NCBI GenBank assembly: GCA_016840425.1 | Contig: JAEOSI010000113.1 | Coordinates: 1 to 7,402, forward strand | DNA length: 7,402 bases | Direction of reading: 5' to 3' | Source: Candidatus Wukongarchaeum yapensis | Lineage (GTDB): Archaea > Asgardarchaeota > Wukongarchaeia > Wukongarchaeales > Wukongarchaeaceae | Shown: piece by piece, positions 1-7,402 of the stretch | Layout: each line of letters opens with the position of its first letter | Numbering within the stretch: position 1 is the stretch's first letter | The notes under the pieces: model-generated | The model's input: only the letters and a program-made list of their open reading frames with translations | What the model was told of the DNA's origin: nothing | Database searches by the model: none | Position numbers and translations under genes: made by a program

Positions 1-17
1 TTAAAATTTTTGAGAGA

Positions 18-22
18 GGAGG
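18..22 (+). promoter_or_regulatory. Shine-Dalgarno site of the giant TrmB-like gene
   Basis: GGAGG ends 4 nt before the ATG at 27. Confidence 0.7.
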
Positions 23-26
23 AAAG

Positions 27-3000
27 ATGTCGATAACTGAACCTTTAAAGAAAATAGGATTAGAAGAGCTTCAAGTAGGAGCTTATAACGTTCTTATAGC
101 TCTTGGGGCAAAAACAGCAGAGGAAGTAGCTTTACACTTAAAAAAAGATCTTAGCGAGATTACTGAGGCGCTTGACGAACTTGTGGAAAAGGGGTTCGTT
201 AAAAAAATAGCGGGAAAAGTGGACCTTTACATTGCCCTTGCACCAAGTATTGTTCTTACAGCCGAAGCTGAAAAAAAGCTCGAAGAGGAACTTAAAGGGA
301 TCTCGGGGGACGTAGAAGATATTTGGAAAAACGCTAAAGTTTCTTTGGATACCGTGACTAACAACCTTATCGATTCCTTAAATCAGAAGATGTTAGAGCT
401 CATGAATGCTATCGAAACTCCTATCAAAGAAATTTCTGGACAGTTTGGGGCAATTTTCACAAAGTTTAGCACGGACTTAAGAACGAACTCAAACAACGCA
501 GGAGAACTGATTACAAAAGAGGCTGCTGAGAAATACGCGGATCTTGAAGCTCATTTTTCCTCATTGAGGGATGACATAGAAAACACGATGAAAGAACAAT
601 TAGAGGTTCTTGAAAAAAGTGCAAGAGATGTTTCGCAAGCAATAATAGACGCATTAAATGGGTTTAAAGAAGGAAGAACTAGCCTAATACAAGACTACTT
701 TAATCATGTTAAAGAGGGGATAGAGAAGGCATTAAACAACCTTAGTGAGAGCGTCCAAAACAGTCTAACGAGCGTAGAATCCTTATCGGAAGAGATAAAG
801 AACAGATTAAAGGCTCAACAAGACGAAATGAAGGCAGGAATAGAAACCACATCGTTAAGTTGGGTGGATAAACGTAAAACAACCCTTGACAGTTTGCTGG
901 GTCGGGTAACGAAAATATTGGAAGATTTTAATTCTTCTGCCAAGTTAGAACTTGAAAAACTTGTAAATTCTTCCCTAGATTTTGAGAAAGAGGTTAAAAG
1001 TTCCTTAGAAGGAGCTCAAGAAAGCTTTAACATGGGACTGGAAGAGGAGATAGAGAAGGGAAAAAATTCGTTAATAGAGGCGAAAGAAGAAGTAAATAGC
1101 AAACTTCAAGATGCTGTTCAAAATCTTCAAGAAAACGTCTCGAAAAAAGGGGAAGAAACAAGGCAAGTTATAGAAGACTCTTCAGCTGGTTGGAACGCTA
1201 TAATAGATGAACATAAAAACATCTTACAAATATTAGGAGGAAAAGTCTCGGAGTATGAGGGTTTAGAACAAGGGAGGATGAAGGATATTAAAGGTGAAGT
1301 AACCGGTTTTGTCGAAGATAGCGCTCAAAAAACGAGGGAAATTTTGGAAGATGTTCGAGAAAAAGCGGATCAAATCAACGCTTTGTTAAGACAGGAATTG
1401 GTGCAAACACTAAACATAATCTTTGGTAACATGGTCAATGAAAATAAGGCCAAAGTGGAGGCTTCCTCTTCGAAAATTGAGGAAAAGAAGCAAGAATCTT
1501 TAGACCGTATAAAAGATATCTGTGGAAAGGCAATTAAAGAGATAACAGATCTAAAAGAAAAAAACTTAGGGATAGTGGGACAGCAAAACGAAAAAATTTC
1601 CAGTGAAGTAGATGTAAACGCACAAAATATAGAAAATGCTATAGAAAAGACGTTGCAATCGCTTTTATCAAAAATACAAACTACTGTTAGTGAAACCGAA
1701 AACATTACCAAAAACACGATTAATACCACTATGAAGGAAACAGAGGAAAGCATAACGCAAAGTACAAACAAAATCCAGGAAATGATACAAAAAGAGACCA
1801 GCGATCTTGCATCCAAAAACGAAGAAAGTAAAGGGATGATAGCTTCAGAATTTTCAATCTTAAAAGAATCGATGAAAAAGTTTCAAGAAGAGGATTTAAA
1901 ACAGAAGATGAATGAGGGGCTAAAAGCGCATCTACAATCGATAAACGAGACTACAAAGAACCATGAAAATTCCTTGTTAAAAACGATAAAAGAAGTAACA
2001 ACGAATATTGAGAAAGAAGCAGCTAAGCTTAAAGCCGATATACCGCCAAGCCTCGAACTTTTATTAACTGATCAAATGGACGCTATAACTCAGTTTGATT
2101 TAACGTTATTCAGAGAACTTACAAACTTTCAAAAAGTTATAGAGGAACTTCAGCCAGTTTTCGATGAAAAAATGGCGAAAAAAGCTTTTGGCAAAGAACG
2201 TGCTCCAGAAATATATCAACTAATTCAAGGGTTAAACATTGCTGCTAGAAGAGAAGAGATGAAAAACCTTGTAAACAAACATAAAACGGATTTCAAGGAA
2301 AAGGTTAGTTCGTTTCTTGACAAGTTAAGTAGAAGTTTGACAGATCAGGAGAAGACTGCTCAAAAAATGAACGAGGAAGAGTCCCGAAAAATAGCGAAAA
2401 TTTTCTCAGAGCTGCGGGAAAATAGCGGTGAAATAGTTAATAATAGTGAAAGAGAGGTTTTAGAAAGTGCGGGTAATCTAATTAATGACCTCATTCTCAG
2501 CGTAGAAAATGGGCATGAAGAACTCACATCGGCGTTAGAGGGAAGTAAGGAGGCTCAGATAAAGATTTTGAACGATGCTAACCAGCAAGGGATAGAGACA
2601 TTGACAGGGGTTAAAAATAAGATTGTCGATGTTTTCCAAAGCGGTCTTAAAGATGCTGATAGCCTACAAAACGCCGTTATAGAAAATGCTGAGAAGTCTT
2701 GTGAGGAGATGAAACAGGAAACTGGTGGGTTAATATCGTCCTCATCAGGCAACATGAAGACGATTTTAGAATCTACGAAAAGTGATTTAGAAGGGGTTAT
2801 AGAGGCGATAATGGGAAATTTGAAGAAAGATGTTGAGGATTTAGAGGCAAATAGCGGAGAAACAGCGACTCTTACTGCAGAAAGTCTAAATAAAATGTTG
2901 AAGGAGTTTGAGGGGGGAAGTTTTGAGTGGCTGCAAAGTATTCAAGAGACCATAACAGAAACGATGGACCAAAAACTTGGAACTGGAGAAACAGGAGGAT

Positions 3001-4631
3001 CTGAAATAGCTACAAATGGAGGAGAGAAAGGGGAAATAGAGGCAGAAGTATCGCTTGAGGAGGATCTTAGAACGCTTATTGATGGAATGGTTTCTGAAGG
3101 TGTAAACAGTTTAATAGAGAAGAAAAATGAAGGAATCAAGAAAGTTGAAGATATAGTTAAAGAAACAGAAAACAAAAACAGGGATTTGACTCAAGCTCTT
3201 AAAACAGGGGTAGAAGATGCAGAAAACAGGCTTATAGAAGTTCGCACCCATCTGGAAAAAGCCAAAAAAGCGATGGAAGAGCTTGAAATTAGAATTAAGG
3301 AAACAGTCGACCTTGAAAAAGGAAGAATGGAGCAATTAGTAAATACGATAGGCGGCTTTATAGATAAAACTAGTGAAGAAGTCTTTCTAAAAATTGAGGG
3401 GATAAAACAGTCAATAAACCAAGTTATTGAAAACATTAAGACAAATGTAGACGAGATGGAAGAAAAAGTACGCGAATTCAGCACCGTTACTGAAACCCTA
3501 GAAAAAGAAAAAATAGGATTGATGGAGCAAGGGCGACAAGAGATAGGGGAGGTGCTCAAAGAACCAGAAGACAAAATTACAGACCTTTTAAACAAGATTA
3601 GAGAGATCATTGACACGAAGGAAGGAGAAATTAGAAACCTTGTAAGTTCAGACATCGAAACCGTTAAAGGTGCAATAAAAGACGGTGAAAAAATCTTGAA
3701 GGATCCCTTAGAAGCCCAAGAAGGAAAAATTAGTGAGATAACGGAAAAACACTTAGCAGAGCTTGAAAGAACGACAGAAAATTTCACATCTCGTGCAGAT
3801 GTCGTTTCTATGGAACCTGTGCGAAGAATAAAGGATCAAGCGATAAATTCCCTTGCAGAAATAACAAGCCTCATCTCGAAACATTCACTAACCCTTAAAG
3901 AAACCCTTTATAGTTCAGCTGAGAATATCAGAAAAACACTAGAAGATTACACAACCAGCGCTGAAACAACAATAGGAAATGTTAAAAATAATGCAGAAAA
4001 CGAGCTTAAAACAAGCCATAATAACATTAAACAAGATGTAGAAACTTTAGAAAACTCGATAACTAAGGATATGCAACAAACAAACGTAGCAGTTACACAA
4101 CAAATGTCAAAGAAATTACAAGAGGTACCGCTAAAAATCCAAGAAGCATTAGGGGCTACAAAGAGTACGACAGAATTTCTTAAAGAAATCCAAAACATAG
4201 CAGTAAAAATAGAACCTTTACCCATAGAGCAAACATACAGAATAGCAGGAAAAGATGCACCGATAAACGTGATAAAAGGCATGATGGCGCGAACTAAAAG
4301 CACGATCACTATTCTCATACCAGAAATAAAGGCATTACCTTTAGAACTTATCGAGGATGTAAGCGCAAGAAAAAGGGTGCACATACTTTCAAACATACAA
4401 CCAGAAGACATGGAGTACGCCCAAAAAATAAAAAAAGAACGACCAAGCATTCAAATCAGGACAAATCCTGCCTTGGAAATCATAGGAGCAACAAGGGACT
4501 CAGAAGAAATCGCAATAGGCTCAATTAACACACCAGAAAAAATAGAACTCATAACAACCACAAACGAAGAACTCGTAAAATTCCTATACGAACTAATAAC
4601 ATCAACCCACGCAAAATCTCGACCAATATAA
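27..4631 (+). CDS. Giant TrmB-like protein: N-terminal winged HTH (aa ~5-76), ~1300-aa hendecad helical/coiled-coil rod (aa ~85-1395), C-terminal TrmB effector-binding/PLD-like domain (aa ~1399-1534)
   Basis: 4.6-kb open frame with GGAGG at 18-22 before the ATG. The N-terminus LKKIGLEELQVGAYNVLIALGAKTAEEVA...LDELVEKGFV...LYIALAP follows the recalled TrmB HTH pattern (LxxLGLsxxEaxvYxaLlxxGxxTaxEia...LxxLxxKGlV...YxAvxP). The middle is E/K/S/T/N-rich with hydrophobic residues every 11 positions. The C-terminus (TYRIAGKDAPINVIKGMMARTKSTITILIP...RVHIL...ATRDSEEIAIG) has the alternating alpha/beta pattern of TrmB C-terminal domains. No Walker A/B motif, signal peptide or TM helix was seen. Domain calls are by eye, not HMM. 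Confidence 0.85.
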   Translation: MSITEPLKKIGLEELQVGAYNVLIALGAKTAEEVALHLKKDLSEITEALDELVEKGFVKKIAGKVDLYIALAPSIVLTAEAEKKLEEELKGISGDVEDIWKNAKVSLDTVTNNLIDSLNQKMLELMNAIETPIKEISGQFGAIFTKFSTDLRTNSNNAGELITKEAAEKYADLEAHFSSLRDDIENTMKEQLEVLEKSARDVSQAIIDALNGFKEGRTSLIQDYFNHVKEGIEKALNNLSESVQNSLTSVESLSEEIKNRLKAQQDEMKAGIETTSLSWVDKRKTTLDSLLGRVTKILEDFNSSAKLELEKLVNSSLDFEKEVKSSLEGAQESFNMGLEEEIEKGKNSLIEAKEEVNSKLQDAVQNLQENVSKKGEETRQVIEDSSAGWNAIIDEHKNILQILGGKVSEYEGLEQGRMKDIKGEVTGFVEDSAQKTREILEDVREKADQINALLRQELVQTLNIIFGNMVNENKAKVEASSSKIEEKKQESLDRIKDICGKAIKEITDLKEKNLGIVGQQNEKISSEVDVNAQNIENAIEKTLQSLLSKIQTTVSETENITKNTINTTMKETEESITQSTNKIQEMIQKETSDLASKNEESKGMIASEFSILKESMKKFQEEDLKQKMNEGLKAHLQSINETTKNHENSLLKTIKEVTTNIEKEAAKLKADIPPSLELLLTDQMDAITQFDLTLFRELTNFQKVIEELQPVFDEKMAKKAFGKERAPEIYQLIQGLNIAARREEMKNLVNKHKTDFKEKVSSFLDKLSRSLTDQEKTAQKMNEEESRKIAKIFSELRENSGEIVNNSEREVLESAGNLINDLILSVENGHEELTSALEGSKEAQIKILNDANQQGIETLTGVKNKIVDVFQSGLKDADSLQNAVIENAEKSCEEMKQETGGLISSSSGNMKTILESTKSDLEGVIEAIMGNLKKDVEDLEANSGETATLTAESLNKMLKEFEGGSFEWLQSIQETITETMDQKLGTGETGGSEIATNGGEKGEIEAEVSLEEDLRTLIDGMVSEGVNSLIEKKNEGIKKVEDIVKETENKNRDLTQALKTGVEDAENRLIEVRTHLEKAKKAMEELEIRIKETVDLEKGRMEQLVNTIGGFIDKTSEEVFLKIEGIKQSINQVIENIKTNVDEMEEKVREFSTVTETLEKEKIGLMEQGRQEIGEVLKEPEDKITDLLNKIREIIDTKEGEIRNLVSSDIETVKGAIKDGEKILKDPLEAQEGKISEITEKHLAELERTTENFTSRADVVSMEPVRRIKDQAINSLAEITSLISKHSLTLKETLYSSAENIRKTLEDYTTSAETTIGNVKNNAENELKTSHNNIKQDVETLENSITKDMQQTNVAVTQQMSKKLQEVPLKIQEALGATKSTTEFLKEIQNIAVKIEPLPIEQTYRIAGKDAPINVIKGMMARTKSTITILIPEIKALPLELIEDVSARKRVHILSNIQPEDMEYAQKIKKERPSIQIRTNPALEIIGATRDSEEIAIGSINTPEKIELITTTNEELVKFLYELITSTHAKSRPI

Positions 4632-4681
4632 CCATCTTAACACAATTCAAGTATCTCTTAACTTTTCAACCATTCCTTCCA

Positions 4682-4687
4682 TTTTTT
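4682..4687 (+). terminator. Putative archaeal oligo-U terminator after the giant gene
   Basis: T6 tract in a pyrimidine-rich stretch (cttttcaaccattccttccattttttc), about 50 nt after the stop, in a convergent intergenic gap. Confidence 0.4.
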
Positions 4688-4707
4688 CAATTAAACAACC
4701 TTTATGA

Positions 4708-5295
4708 TTAGAAACCAGTTATACCGCGTCTTATCATGCTTACAGCTATTGCTGCTAATAACAAGCCTAGAACTCGTGAAGCAGCATTGATACCGCTACT
4801 ACCGATTTTTCGAATTACTAGGTCACTGTATTTTAATATTAACCATGCGATTACTCCATTTGCTATAGCAGCAAGAGCAGTTATGAAAGGGCCGTAGTCA
4901 TAAGTTAAAATTATGCTCATCGTTATAGTTCCAGGCCCAGCAAGAAGGGGGGTTCCTAAGGGCACTACAGCGAGCTCTTCTTTTTTTACCGTATAAGAGC
5001 GGACAACATTTTTGCCAGTAGTGAAATCTAGGGCAAGTATTAACAATATAAGGCCCCCGGCAACAAAGAAATCTTCAGTTTTTATGTGAAAAAATTCGAG
5101 TATATATTTTCCTAAAAAGATGAAAACTAAAACAATGGACCCAGCAACTATGGCGCTTTTTTTCGCGATTTCTCTTCGTTCCAAGGGCGATGAACCGTCT
5201 GTTAAGGATAAAAATATAGGAACAGTACCTATGGCGTTGAGCATAACAAATAGATTCAAAAAAGCAAGGGAAAAATCTCCTGAAAAAGAAGACAA
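4708..5295 (-). CDS. marC: MarC family (UPF0056) integral membrane protein, copy A; putative small neutral amino-acid transporter
   Basis: 195 aa with about 6 hydrophobic segments. MarC motifs FVMLNAIGTVPIFLSLT, ERREIAKK, AGGLILL, AVVPLGTPLLAGPGTIT and RVLGLLLAAIAVSMI. TTG start with GAAGGTGG at 5308-5301. Confidence 0.92.
   Translation of the reverse strand: MSSFSGDFSLAFLNLFVMLNAIGTVPIFLSLTDGSSPLERREIAKKSAIVAGSIVLVFIFLGKYILEFFHIKTEDFFVAGGLILLILALDFTTGKNVVRSYTVKKEELAVVPLGTPLLAGPGTITMSIILTYDYGPFITALAAIANGVIAWLILKYSDLVIRKIGSSGINAASRVLGLLLAAIAVSMIRRGITGF
4921..4973. repeat. 53-nt exact repeat shared by the two marC genes (copy 1; copy 2 at 5661-5713)
   Basis: cgttatagttccaggcccagcaagaaggggggttcctaagggcactacagcga is identical at offset 740. 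A second block, 4723-4760 vs 5463-5500, is 37/38 identical at the same offset. Confidence 0.95.
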
Positions 5296-5300
5296 CTAGA

Positions 5301-5308
5301 CCACCTTC
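5301..5308 (-). promoter_or_regulatory. Shine-Dalgarno site of marC copy A
   Basis: The minus strand reads GAAGGTGG, 5 nt before the TTG start. Confidence 0.65.
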
Positions 5309-5311
5309 AAA

Positions 5312-5370
5312 TAATAGGAAAAAATTAGATTATTAAATTCTTATTTTAATAGGAAAAATATTAATATTTT
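5312..5370. repeat. 12-nt direct repeat TAATAGGAAAAA (5312-5323, 5347-5358) with an overlapping perfect 16-bp palindrome AAAATATTAATATTTT (5355-5370)
   Basis: Read directly from the sequence. It lies in the 149-nt gap between the two marC genes, upstream of copy A. Function is not established. Confidence 0.6.
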
Positions 5371-5444
5371 GGATTGAAATTTGTTTGATTTTGGTTAAAA
5401 AGTTTTTTAAACATTTTTACGGGAATTGAACGTTTTTTCGGCTT

Positions 5445-6035
5445 TTATGTAATGCCTGTTAAACCGCGTCTTATCATGCTTACAGCTATGGCTGCTAATA
5501 TAACGCCGAGTACTCTTGAGGTTGCTTTTATACCGTTATAGCCGATTTTTCGAGCTATTAAGCTGCTTTGTCTTAAAATTAGCCACGCAACTATCACGTT
5601 TGTTATGGCGGCAAGGGCGGTTACGAGGACGCCGAAGTCGAAGGTTAAAAGGATTACCAACGTTATAGTTCCAGGCCCAGCAAGAAGGGGGGTTCCTAAG
5701 GGCACTACAGCGATTTGTTCTCTTTCTGCTTGTTGAGAGCGAATAATTTCTCCTCCTGTGGTTATATCGAGGGCAATTATTAACAGTAGAAGACCCCCTG
5801 CAATGAAGAAGTCTTCAGCTTCTAAGAAGAAAAAGTCGAGTATAAATTGCCCAAAAAAGGTAAAGATCACAGCTATGATTCCTGCAACTATAGCGCTTTT
5901 TCTAGCGATTTCTTTTCGTTCTTTAGGTGAAAAATCGCTTGTTAAGCTTAAAAATATAGGTACAATACCTATGGCATCGATCATAACAAATAAAATCAAA
6001 AAAGTTTGGATGAAATCTTTTAAGAAAGAAAACAA
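5445..6035 (-). CDS. marC: MarC family (UPF0056) integral membrane protein, copy B
   Basis: 196 aa with the same MarC motifs. It aligns without gaps to copy A at about 126/195 (~65%) identity by hand count. TTG start with AAGGTGG at 6048-6042. Confidence 0.92.
   Translation of the reverse strand: MFSFLKDFIQTFLILFVMIDAIGIVPIFLSLTSDFSPKERKEIARKSAIVAGIIAVIFTFFGQFILDFFFLEAEDFFIAGGLLLLIIALDITTGGEIIRSQQAEREQIAVVPLGTPLLAGPGTITLVILLTFDFGVLVTALAAITNVIVAWLILRQSSLIARKIGYNGIKATSRVLGVILAAIAVSMIRRGLTGIT
5661..5713. repeat. 53-nt exact repeat shared by the two marC genes (copy 2; copy 1 at 4921-4973)
   Basis: Direct base-by-base comparison. Confidence 0.95.
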
Positions 6036-6041
6036 TTCAGG

Positions 6042-6048
6042 CCACCTT
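6042..6048 (-). promoter_or_regulatory. Shine-Dalgarno site of marC copy B
   Basis: The minus strand reads AAGGTGG, 6 nt before the TTG start. Confidence 0.65.
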
Positions 6049-6088
6049 ATTGGTGCGAAAAGCGGTCATTAATTTTTTATTTTAGGAA

Positions 6089-6098
6089 TATTTAAAGA
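6089..6098. promoter_or_regulatory. Candidate TATA box in the divergent marC-B / hisA-like intergenic region
   Basis: TTTAAATA on the minus strand (6096-6089) overlaps TTTAAAGA on the plus strand (6091-6098), at plausible distances from both starts. No convincing BRE. Confidence 0.4.
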
Positions 6099-6129
6099 TG
6101 GTTTATTAGATATTTGGTAGGTTAGAATT

Positions 6130-6861
6130 ATGCGCGTGATTCCGGTTATGGACTTGTTAAGCGGTGTAGTTGTTCATGCAAAGAAAGGAGAAAGAGAAAA
6201 TTATAAGCCTGTTAATTCTGTTTTGACTCCTTCAAAAGATCCTTTAGTAATAGGGGATGTTTTTAAGAAGATTTTTGGATTTAAAGAGGTTTATATAGCG
6301 GATTTAGACGCAATCCAAAGTTCATGGGCTGTAAACAATTTTTCGATTCTTGAAAAACTTTCTCTATTAGACATGGCGTTAATGCTTGATTGTGGTATAG
6401 ATTCCCCTGAAAAGGCTAAATCAACGCTAGCTTTTGGAGTAAACAAGATAGTTATTGGCACTGAAACCCTTTCTTCGCTAAAGCAATATAAAGAAATTGT
6501 TGAAGGGGTCGGGGAAGAAAAAGTGGTTCTAAGCCTTGATTTAAAGGATGGAAAGCTTTTAGGCGAAGTTTCTAAAGAGGTAGAAGAAGATCCTTTAAAG
6601 CTTCTAAAAAAAGTGTCAAAAATTGGGGCAAAAGAGATCATAATTTTAGAGCTATCCAAGGTCGGAACAGGTAGGGGGATTCCTGAAAAAATCATTAAAA
6701 AAGTTTTGAAATCTACTACTCTTCCCATAATCATAGGAGGAGGAGTGAAAGACATAGGGAACATAAAAAAAGCAAGAGAACTTGGAGCAAAAGGTGTGCT
6801 TATAGCTACCGCACTACACACAGGAAAAATAAAACCAAAAGACCTGAAAACAATTATCTAA
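6130..6861 (+). CDS. HisA/HisF-related TIM-barrel protein (TIGR00734/MJ0703-like, associated with H4MPT/methanofuran C1 gene sets); probably not the histidine-pathway HisA
   Basis: 243 aa. The N-terminus MRVIPVMDLLSGVVVHAKKGERENYKP and the motifs YIADLDAI, LDCG, VIGTETL, LSLDLKDG, LSKVGTGRG, IIGGGV and LIATALH fit the HisA-fold subfamily with the 'VVHAxxGxRxxYxP' signature. No other his genes are adjacent. Confidence 0.85.
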   Translation: MRVIPVMDLLSGVVVHAKKGERENYKPVNSVLTPSKDPLVIGDVFKKIFGFKEVYIADLDAIQSSWAVNNFSILEKLSLLDMALMLDCGIDSPEKAKSTLAFGVNKIVIGTETLSSLKQYKEIVEGVGEEKVVLSLDLKDGKLLGEVSKEVEEDPLKLLKKVSKIGAKEIIILELSKVGTGRGIPEKIIKKVLKSTTLPIIIGGGVKDIGNIKKARELGAKGVLIATALHTGKIKPKDLKTII

Positions 6862-6871
6862 AAAATCTCGT

Positions 6872-6877
6872 TTTTTA
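6872..6877 (+). terminator. Putative oligo-U terminator after the hisA-like gene
   Basis: T6 tract begins 11 nt after the stop codon. Confidence 0.4.
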
Positions 6878-6887
6878 TTAAAATTGG

Positions 6888-6895
6888 TTTATAAG
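6888..6895 (+). promoter_or_regulatory. Candidate TATA box for the zinc-finger gene
   Basis: TTTATAAG lies about 48 nt upstream of the ATG at 6943. It directly abuts the ORF-track start at 6898, which argues against that start. Confidence 0.4.
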
Positions 6896-6942
6896 ATATG
6901 TTTAGCTTTATTGAAGATACGATGAAAAGTCGAGGCGCTAAT

Positions 6943-7119
6943 ATGGAAGTAATAGAGAGAAAAATTGAAAAAGAATTTCATATCTGCGATAATTGCGGAT
7001 ATGACAAAGGATTTCATGTTTCCTTCGTTAAACAGGGAGATAATTTCGAAATAGTACTCATATGTCCTGAATGTGGGCAAAGATATAAGATAAAATGGAA
7101 AATTAAACTTGAACAGTAA
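6943..7119 (+). CDS. Small 4-Cys zinc-finger/ribbon protein (CxxC...CPxCG), 58 aa, function unknown
   Basis: MEVIERKIEKEFHICDNCGYDKGFHVSFVKQGDNFEIVLICPECGQRYKIKWKIKLEQ. The start at 6943 is preferred because GAGG lies at 6932-6935 and the TATA-like box leaves no room for 6898. The ATG at 6922 is an alternative. Confidence 0.75.
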   Translation: MEVIERKIEKEFHICDNCGYDKGFHVSFVKQGDNFEIVLICPECGQRYKIKWKIKLEQ

Positions 7120-7124
7120 AGAGG

Positions 7125-7402
7125 TTATGTGGCACGGATTTGTAGGATATCGCCATCTTTTAAAATATACTCTGTTCCTACCTGTTTTTTTAGAACCTTA
7201 TCTTCCTCTCTGAAGAGGAGAGCGGATTTAAACTGTTTTAAAAAATCCTTATGTATTCTTTTAGCAGCATCAGCTACCGTTGAACCATGAAACAACACGA
7301 GGGGTCTTTTCGAAACTTCGCCTTGCTGGTTTTTCGTATATACGCGGATCATTTGAAGGATTTGAAACGCTTCTTCACCGATTTTATCAATACCTTCCCC
7401 TG
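7125..7402 (-). CDS. C-terminal part (end of G domain plus TGS domain) of a DRG/Obg-family GTPase; 5' part lies beyond the window
   Basis: The frame is open to the window edge: GEGIDKIGEEAFQILQMIRVYTK...PLVLFHGSTVADAAKRIHKDFLKQFK...VG...LKDGDILQI. IRVYTK, GSTVxD, IHKDF and LxDGDI are DRG-type TGS motifs. The ORF-track start at 7352 is an internal Met. Confidence 0.88.
   Translation of the reverse strand, partial: GEGIDKIGEEAFQILQMIRVYTKNQQGEVSKRPLVLFHGSTVADAAKRIHKDFLKQFKSALLFREEDKVLKKQVGTEYILKDGDILQIRAT

Follow-up and report, generated by a model that had tools for sequence, protein, structure and literature searches.

A giant TrmB-headed hendecad protein of Asgard archaea as a candidate fold-back arm encoded with an NTPase and a second rod protein

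Results and discussion

We analyzed a stretch of 7,402 nucleotides (nt) from Candidatus Wukongarchaeum yapensis (GenBank assembly GCA_016840425.1, contig JAEOSI010000113.1, positions 1 to 7,402 of the forward strand), which is called the window below. Its first gene (27..4631, + strand, coordinates including the stop codon) is an open frame for a protein of 1534 amino acids (aa), in which a winged helix and a domain at the C-terminus (C-domain), both of TrmB-family origin, are separated by a very long hendecad rod. We propose that this protein is a TrmB/TrmBL2 derivative in which the short dimerization helix was replaced by approximately 1300 residues of hendecad (11/3) amphipathic helix. The N-terminal half of the rod (N-arm) would pair antiparallel with the C-terminal half (C-arm), most likely in one chain, to give a two-stranded arm of ~ 95 nm with a free apex, at the base of which the winged helix and the C-domain would be reunited as a TrmBL2-like head. 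Such a protein would have the layout of an SMC protein, with the ATPase supplied in trans, and would act structurally, as a scaffold or tether with a long arm, instead of as a transcription factor that senses sugars. A co-encoded NTPase would control its assembly or conformation together with a second rod protein. Taken as a whole, with the fold-back arm, the TrmBL2-like head and the NTPase-controlled scaffold or tether, we give this explanation somewhat better than an even chance.

The rod follows an 11-residue period

The first-pass annotation of this DNA, made from the letters and their translations, had described an 11-residue repeat of hydrophobic residues and not the 3.5-residue period. 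Fourier analysis of Kyte-Doolittle hydrophobicity, with 200 shuffles as a control, bore this out, with peaks at 3.65–3.67 and power at period 3.5 near zero in all rod segments. For aa 85–1390 the peak was at 3.65 with a power of 382, compared with shuffle maxima that had a mean of 58 and a highest value of 109. The peak was at 3.66 for both aa 85–402 and aa 756–990, and at 3.69 for aa 403–755. For aa 990–1290 it was at 3.62 with a drifting phase, and for aa 1290–1395 a peak at 3.64 barely exceeded the shuffles. Phase tracking revealed a steady phase over aa 88–385, about 27 hendecads (~ 28 unbroken repeats had been counted from aa 85), beyond which the phase shifted by about + 100 degrees within aa 385–407 (near 395–405). 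The shift corresponds to one residue and matches a slip previously noticed near aa 403. The phase was steady again over aa 759–990 (21 hendecads) and over aa 1287–1365, in agreement with the runs that had been placed from aa 756 (~ 21 repeats) and from aa 1290.

In the 28 repeats of the first block, hydrophobic residues were found at position a in 86%, at h in 71% and at e in 57%, which are positions 0, 7 and 4 of the frame as first described; the second block (aa 756–986) has a core of a, d, e and h. Three positions (h, a and e; about 100 degrees) make up the hydrophobic stripe, which is composed of Leu, Ile, Val and Phe and is flanked by a partly hydrophobic d or i. The rod contains 0.7% Pro and has a net charge of −82. 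The narrow stripe, the low Pro content and the acidic character together form the pattern of a two-stranded hendecad core and not that of a lipid-binding face. Periodicity of the 11/3 type with defined core positions over such long stretches would place the rod in the hendecad coiled-coil class.

The N-arm comprises aa 85–711 (279..2159, + strand; period 3.66–3.69; core a, e and h) and the C-arm aa 728–1394 (2208..4208, + strand), the latter delimited by Fourier and phase analysis, with a period of ~ 3.6 over aa 1034–1160. Just two windows rich in Pro and Gly occur in the rod, and both are Gly-rich breaks: one in the N-arm at aa 404–425 (1236..1301, + strand), ~ 310 residues before the turn described below, and one in the C-arm at aa 985–1012 (2979..3062, + strand), ~ 270 residues after it, so that the second roughly mirrors the first. 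The protein has no Walker A pattern, and scans against Pfam and NCBIfam found no SMC or ABC family, in keeping with the earlier warning against annotating it as SMC.

Both end domains derive from the TrmB family

The N-terminal winged helix-turn-helix (aa 7–73; 45..245, + strand) matched the TrmB family as had been predicted (PF01978, 47.3 bits, cut-off 25.6), and 46 of 48 family N-termini match Pfam TrmB as well. A profile built from these 48 N-termini (A1) matched TrmBL2 (5bpd, E 3.5e-16) and TrmB (3qph, E 5.6e-16), with an alignment extending into the dimerization helix, up to TrmBL2 residue ~ 103. The C-domain (aa 1395–1534; 4209..4628, + strand) was assigned from structure. Taken alone, the last ~ 140 residues matched no Pfam or NCBIfam model, and the sequence-profile match to the TrmB family was weak (E 0.098). 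An AlphaFold2 (AF2) model, with 70 homologs as input, had a pLDDT of 91.4, and a Foldseek search with it returned TrmBL2 (5bpd, E 7.5e-10) and TrmB (2f5t, E 2.8e-8, root-mean-square deviation (rmsd) 2.9). TrmBL2 and TrmB were also the top matches against Swiss-Prot AFDB; PLD-fold nucleases and FAM83 proteins followed them among the structural matches. The model of a 714-aa ortholog, compared using VIA-align, gave Z 15.2 and rmsd 2.1 to TrmB 2f5t and Z 14 to TrmBL2. Both end domains are therefore derived from the TrmB family.

The C-domain matches span residues 110–241 of TrmB only, i.e., the first subdomain of the effector domain. The second, sugar-binding beta-barrel subdomain is absent, as the protein ends after the first. 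Of the regulator sensor fold that had been predicted for the C-terminus, the TrmB/TrmBL2-type domain was thus recovered by Foldseek, and the sugar sensor is absent, the TrmBL2-type subdomain standing alone. A 70-sequence alignment of the C-domain (A2) contains invariant or near-invariant R, P, N, R, E and E, and lacks any conserved His or Lys of the PLD catalytic motif HxK(x)4D; the domain, although of PLD fold, is therefore not a PLD enzyme.

Since the N-terminal profile reaches TrmBL2 residue ~ 103 and the alignment of the C-domain model begins at TrmBL2 residue 92, the rod lies inside the TrmB dimerization helix. The earlier proposal that this linker helix had been amplified holds with respect to the place of insertion. 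Amplification itself, at least a recent one, was dropped, because the gene contains no DNA tandem repeats and a BLASTP self-comparison of the protein found no internal repeats.

TrmB-family proteins read DNA through Tyr50 and Asp51 of the recognition helix (PMC4158304). In the present protein the equivalent residues are Thr46 and Glu47, and the recognition helix has the sequence LSEITEALDELVEK. None of the 48 family members has a Tyr in the Tyr50 column. The winged helix has a median net charge of −1 across the family, and the net charge of the whole protein is about −87. The replacement of both residues, the family-wide loss of the Tyr and the median charge of the winged helix indicate that the head has probably lost sequence-specific DNA reading. 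Given the lost Tyr50 equivalent and the missing sugar-binding subdomain, the protein is unlikely to act as a classical regulator.

A conserved midpoint and arms of matched length

The proposal of a fold-back arm is based on the middle of the rod. A conserved apex module (aa 666–760; 2022..2306, + strand), consisting of a Pro kink, a helix, a loop and a return helix, was identified using jackhmmer and an alignment of orthologs (A4). This module of ~ 95 aa is present in every class I (close) ortholog, with E-values of 1e-34 to 1e-9, and always at 0.467–0.498 of the rod. In 16 orthologs the module with its helix-breaking turn was placed at 0.48–0.50. The probable turn within it, aa 712–727 (PVFDEKMAKKAFGKERAP; 2160..2207, + strand), is marked by a minimum of hendecad amplitude at aa 720, by the clustering of indels at the turn loop in A4 and by a conserved Gly-Lys pair at the same place. 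The deepest hendecad break of the protein, at aa 737, also falls inside the module and corresponds to 0.50 of the rod; in seven further members, with rods of 536–1311 aa, the deepest break is at 0.49–0.50. Prolines across the family peak at 0.45–0.50 of the rod.

When the conserved Gly-Lys column was used to set the turn position in 16 full-length orthologs, with arms of 236–795 aa, the length of the N-arm correlated with that of the C-arm with r = 0.996 and a slope of 0.99, the median difference being 14 aa. For the halves to remain equal over a threefold range of length, insertions and deletions have to be matched between them, which is expected if the arms pair position by mirrored position. 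AF2 secondary structure of the 714-aa ortholog is consistent with this arrangement: long helices flank a six-residue loop (aa 317–322) at the predicted turn, and further breaks at aa 216–223 and aa 411–421 are mirrored about this loop. In several structural matches of the same model the wing (aa 62–71) was aligned with the C-domain. A complex prediction of aa 1–260 with aa 1215–1534 scored 0.29, below the 0.34 mark, and was counted neither way.

Based on these data, we consider antiparallel pairing of the N-arm with the C-arm to be likely. Pairing within one chain, which would give an arm of ~ 95 nm with a reunited head, is less certain and in our estimate a little more probable than not; the intramolecular hairpin is preferred because the midpoint is a helix-breaking loop of variable length. 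Folded back, the protein is predicted to form an arm of about 94–100 nm, versus 195 nm if extended. The fully extended geometry of 195 nm proposed in the first-pass annotation was accordingly set aside, as the conserved midpoint turn and the length-matched arms favor antiparallel halves.

The gene belongs to a conserved operon

On longer contigs that carry the identical protein or an 89%-identical one, and on which the genes upstream of the window can be seen, the rod gene is the third and last of a conserved same-strand trio composed of a STAND-like NTPase, a hendecad protein and the rod gene. The same tightly packed trio was found at three further divergent members, and it precedes nine of nine class I orthologs in other Asgard genomes; nine more distant paralogs are without it. 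Gene 1 encodes a P-loop NTPase of ~ 560–590 aa, of the AAA_16/ATPase_2/nSTAND type, followed by a putative winged helix and a TPR/SNAP-like tail (MarR-like and TPR/SNAP-like matches, all under their cut-offs). AAA_16 was matched with 43.9 bits (cut-off 32.6) in one ortholog; the other orthologs, and the copy that adjoins the gene of the close relative, scored below this cut-off. The gene-1 NTPases are orthologs along their entire length and retain Walker A and B. Gene 2 encodes an almost proline-free protein of 408–778 aa, which is also hendecad (peak 3.66–3.67) and diverges fast. None of the three operon proteins contains a membrane segment.

We therefore considered how the trio may act. A tentative proposal, to which we assign less than an even chance, is that the giant is a structural scaffold or tether and that the NTPase switches its assembly with the gene-2 rod.

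A relation between the length of the gene-2 protein and that of the giant was looked for and rejected, as gene-2 proteins of either ~ 440–500 or ~ 770 aa stand beside giants of 1180–1816 aa. The gene-2 proteins of ~ 770 aa (L045 5687–7999; L050–L052) contain 0–1 proline and no deep hendecad phase break, and each could form one uninterrupted helix of about 114 nm. Through its periodicity, one of these proteins scores above the Pfam cut-offs for Apolipoprotein, ApoLp-III, Baculo_PEP_C and ATG17_like.

Small GTPase genes (Arf/Ras/Roc-like, one with a longin-like match) adjoin the operon in a Freyarchaeota contig (L045 1589–3708) and lie near it in another contig (L042 16500–17225). Such neighbors were not seen at the other operon loci.

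The ZorA profiles of PADLOC matched aa 148–660 of the rod as well as the gene-2 proteins, with E-values down to 1e-17 to 1e-20. An identity with Zorya ZorA was rejected, since the matches are confined to its tail (profile positions ~ 230–750) and the protein has no hydrophobic segment (maximum 19-aa Kyte-Doolittle mean 1.49). Beyond the ZorA tail, PADLOC found only weak likeness of helical parts to LmuB and Leo, and no defence system was assigned. Long helical tails of unrelated systems cross-match strongly, which could give false defence-system calls.

Alternative readings of the protein

Several points weigh against the proposed fold-back arm and its role. All structural statements made here derive from sequence statistics and AF2 models. 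The orthologs are kin, so that the correlation of arm lengths overstates the count of independent events, and both the conserved midpoint and the equal-arm rule would equally be expected of an extended antiparallel homodimer. The full-length AF2 model of the 714-aa ortholog has a pTM of 0.36, and a monomer model would fold back anyway; no structural match to this model brought the winged helix and C-domain of TrmBL2 into one alignment in their native arrangement. All 15 proteins scanned for mirror symmetry of helix irregularities gave a weakly positive signal close to the midpoint, which was never the best center. Mirrored elbows rich in Gly and Pro had to be rejected as a family rule, since they occur in this protein (aa ~ 410 and ~ 992) and not in the other 15 orthologs. 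Regarding the role, the winged helix of this protein has a net charge of just −4 and has kept its wing Lys, so that the head might still bind DNA, and physical contact among the three operon proteins is an assumption.

The homodimer just mentioned would consist of two chains of ~ 195 nm running in opposite directions. Each N-arm would lie on the partner's C-arm, the dyad would pass through the midpoint module, and at both ends a winged helix would meet the C-domain of the other chain, in a stretched version of the domain-swapped TrmB dimer. It has a precedent in TrmB, in which the dimerization helices pair antiparallel (Phe81/Ile91', Phe84/Leu88') and the dimer is a domain swap (PMC4158304). 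We nevertheless judge it improbable, as the midpoint loop breaks the helix and contains a conserved Gly, nearby Pro and length-variable indels, none of which a dyad in a continuous rod needs. In addition, AF2 models the midpoint as a six-residue turn, and proximity favors pairing within a single chain. To our knowledge, every long prokaryotic arm in which N- and C-terminal domains meet (SMC, Rad50, MukB) folds back, which we also counted against the homodimer. In a parallel arrangement, the chains would form a fully extended hendecad coiled coil of ~ 195 nm, as a dimer or tetramer whose winged helices and C-domains lie at opposite ends, and would serve as a filament, a ruler or a chromosome-membrane tether. 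The periodicity does resemble that of rods of the Scy or tetrabrachion type, and proteins of the TrmB family oligomerize through the helix after the winged helix (PMC4877046). Why a turn module should be conserved exactly in the middle, or why the halves should stay equal over a threefold range, is not explained by a parallel rod, and, as regards a tether to the membrane, none of the three operon proteins has a membrane segment or a lipid anchor; we regard this geometry as highly improbable.

Two further readings concern the function more than the geometry. The protein may be a DNA-anchored chromatin protein, the head of which binds DNA non-specifically like TrmBL2 while the arms project from the nucleoid or bridge it. 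Its closest solved relatives at both ends are TrmBL2 structures, TrmBL2 coats DNA as tetramers (PMC4877046), and Lys and Arg residues of the wing are kept. With the DNA-reading Tyr lacking in 48 of 48 members, a recognition helix of the sequence LSEITEALDELVEK, a median winged-helix charge of −1 and a strongly negative protein of about −87, this reading appears possible and, on balance, unlikely. Alternatively, the 11-mer amphipathic helices could lie flat on the lipid surface of a membrane, vesicle or droplet without pairing with one another, as an apolipoprotein- or perilipin-like coat. The rod did pass the Pfam model PF01442 (Apolipoprotein) with 94 bits against a cut-off of 90, and ApoLp-III, Perilipin and Apolipoprotein matches occur in the gene-2 proteins also. 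The PF01442 score is the total of 9 weak stretches, and we read it as a sum of weak periodic matches reflecting shared periodicity. The hydrophobic face of lipid-binding amphipathic helices covers roughly a half-cylinder, whereas the stripe of the rod, at three positions (a, e and h, with d or i in part) of Leu, Ile, Val and Phe, has the pattern of a coiled-coil core. Furthermore, a rod with a net charge of −82 and 0.7% Pro lacks Pro-punctuated 22-mers, and the equal-arm rule would be left unexplained on a lipid surface. A lipid coat is, in our view, very improbable indeed.

Comparison with known systems

The protein is most readily compared with TrmBL2 (PF0496/TK0471; 5bpd, 5bqt and 5box), a nucleoid protein of Thermococcales. 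The two share a TrmB winged helix, an amphipathic helix and a single PLD-fold C-domain without the sugar-binding subdomain; TrmBL2 is the best structure match for the C-domain and the best profile match for the N-termini of the family. TrmBL2 has 264 aa and a dimerization helix of ~ 35 residues, in contrast to the ~ 1300 residues and the midpoint turn found here. The conserved Tyr50 is missing from the present protein, which is strongly acidic and belongs to Asgard lineages, and the gene of which shares its operon with those of an NTPase and another rod protein. With the sugar-sensing TrmB of P. furiosus and T. litoralis (3qph, 2f5t) it shares the winged helix and the first subdomain of the effector domain. 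The second (beta-barrel) subdomain of TrmB, which holds 6 of the 7 sugar-binding residues, is absent, Tyr50 and Asp51 are not kept, and the rod is 40 times longer.

The likeness to SMC, Rad50 and MukB is one of layout alone: terminal domains joined by two length-matched antiparallel arms of 50–100 nm with a conserved apex. The giant has neither a Walker A/B head nor a detected SMC hinge fold, and there is no homology; its arms are hendecad and not heptad, its head would be composed of a winged helix and a PLD-fold domain, and the P-loop NTPase is a separate gene. Streptomyces Scy/FilP, tetrabrachion and the peripheral stalk of A/V-ATPases are similar in their 11/3 periodicity, their a/d/e/h core and their long, nearly straight rods. 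They are, however, parallel assemblies without a midpoint turn, and no sequence relationship to them was found. Apolipoproteins A1, A4 and E (PF01442) have in common with the rod the 11-mer amphipathic periodicity and a score just over the cut-off. They differ from this cytoplasmic archaeal protein, which has a narrow stripe, almost no Pro and no signal peptide, and the match is read as shared periodicity.

Distribution of the family

The architecture recurs with variable rod length across Asgard genomes. The C-domain was found in 36 of 41 related genomes, where it always ends ORFs (open reading frames) of 600–2000 aa. A search of 1.84 billion representative proteins retrieved 92 clusters, in which the domain is nearly always at the extreme C-terminus of proteins of 700–1800 aa. 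Among 65 long family members, 64 have a hydrophobicity peak at 3.65–3.68. Short matches of 150–570 aa were considered as short-rod intermediates and rejected, as they are fragments without a winged helix, from records marked 'partial'. The lineages named in the records are Hod-, Heimdall-, Frey-, Hel- and Sigynarchaeota, the labels being 'helix-turn-helix domain-containing' or 'hypothetical', and the neighbors in the ESM Atlas are archaeal, mostly Promethearchaeota. No paper on either the family or the operon turned up in full-text literature searches.

Of 301 sampled Asgard genomes, 64 contain the apex module, a marker of the operon-linked class. The carriers, among them Candidatus Heimdallarchaeum aukensis and H. 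endolithica, are concentrated in some families (26/29, 10/11, 6/6 and 5/5 genomes), whereas searches of other families returned none (0/76, 0/68).

The genome of Ca. W. yapensis also encodes an 812-aa paralog (contig C227, 1370–3715, − strand; 34% identity) in which a hendecad rod likewise lies between a TrmB winged helix and this C-domain. It is preceded by no NTPase/rod operon and has no clear apex module. In family members of ~ 900 aa (P0063, P0064, P0076, P0090 and P0092) the deepest break and the prolines are at about 0.19 of the rod, which suggests a different rod topology in this subfamily.

The gene and its neighbors in the window

The gene starts 26 nt from the end of the contig. An assembly chimera, which had been named as a risk, can be set aside. 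The identical 1534-aa protein is present on two other public contigs, and an independent sediment DNA run matches nt 1–1909 and 1963–4391 with ≤ 10 differences. Four contigs of a metatranscriptome library lie inside the ORF at 98–99% identity; these are a weak hint of expression, as such libraries can contain DNA. Based on the independent assemblies and the RNA-library contigs, we consider the gene to be real.

The downstream genes of the window look to be without functional link to the rod gene. A convergent gene (4708..5295, − strand; PF01914, 158 bits), outside the system, encodes a membrane protein of the MarC/NAAT family and is followed by a tandem copy (5445..6035, − strand; PF01914, 157 bits). 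In the MarC region (4708–6035) the contigs of one sediment run skip 740–774 nt (4686 to 5461, 4920 to 5661), and the contig of the 89%-identical relative has a single MarC gene; the MarC copy number therefore differs among strains. These genes are followed by a HisA/HisF-related TIM-barrel gene (6130–6861, + strand; TIGR00734-like, under its cut-off) and by the C-terminal TGS part of a YchF-related GTPase gene (7125–7400, − strand). One RNA-library contig maps to 6522–6660, within the HisA/HisF-related gene. The ORFs upstream of paralogs of 1029–1040 aa in two other genomes (G034, G003) start HisH-, HisA- and HisF-like as judged by eye; the resemblance to the HisA/HisF-related neighbor in the window may be a coincidence.

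Significance

The cell architecture of Asgard archaea, the prokaryotes known to be closest to eukaryotes, is in large part unexplained. The family described here is among the largest proteins of these genomes and is conserved with two partners, while being annotated just as 'helix-turn-helix domain-containing' or 'hypothetical'. At its most far-reaching, the interpretation would be that the trio is a previously unknown long-arm machine, confined by record names to Heimdall-, Hod- and Freyarchaeota, in which a STAND-type NTPase acting in trans switches the assembly of the ~ 95 nm fold-back arm, borne by a regulator-derived head, with a single-helix partner of ~ 65–115 nm, forming a cytoskeletal or tethering scaffold that links chromatin, membrane or vesicle-like structures. 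We offer this as speculation with a low probability.

The equal-arm rule is in itself a simple sequence test, which can be applied to other giant helical proteins. If the fold-back arm is correct, the family would represent an independent invention of the SMC-like layout, with a head, length-matched arms and an apex, built from a chromatin or regulator protein, hendecads and an ATPase supplied in trans. It would also show cleanly how the fold of a transcription factor can become a structural element, and Heimdallarchaeia would have a candidate scaffold or tether that is open to testing.

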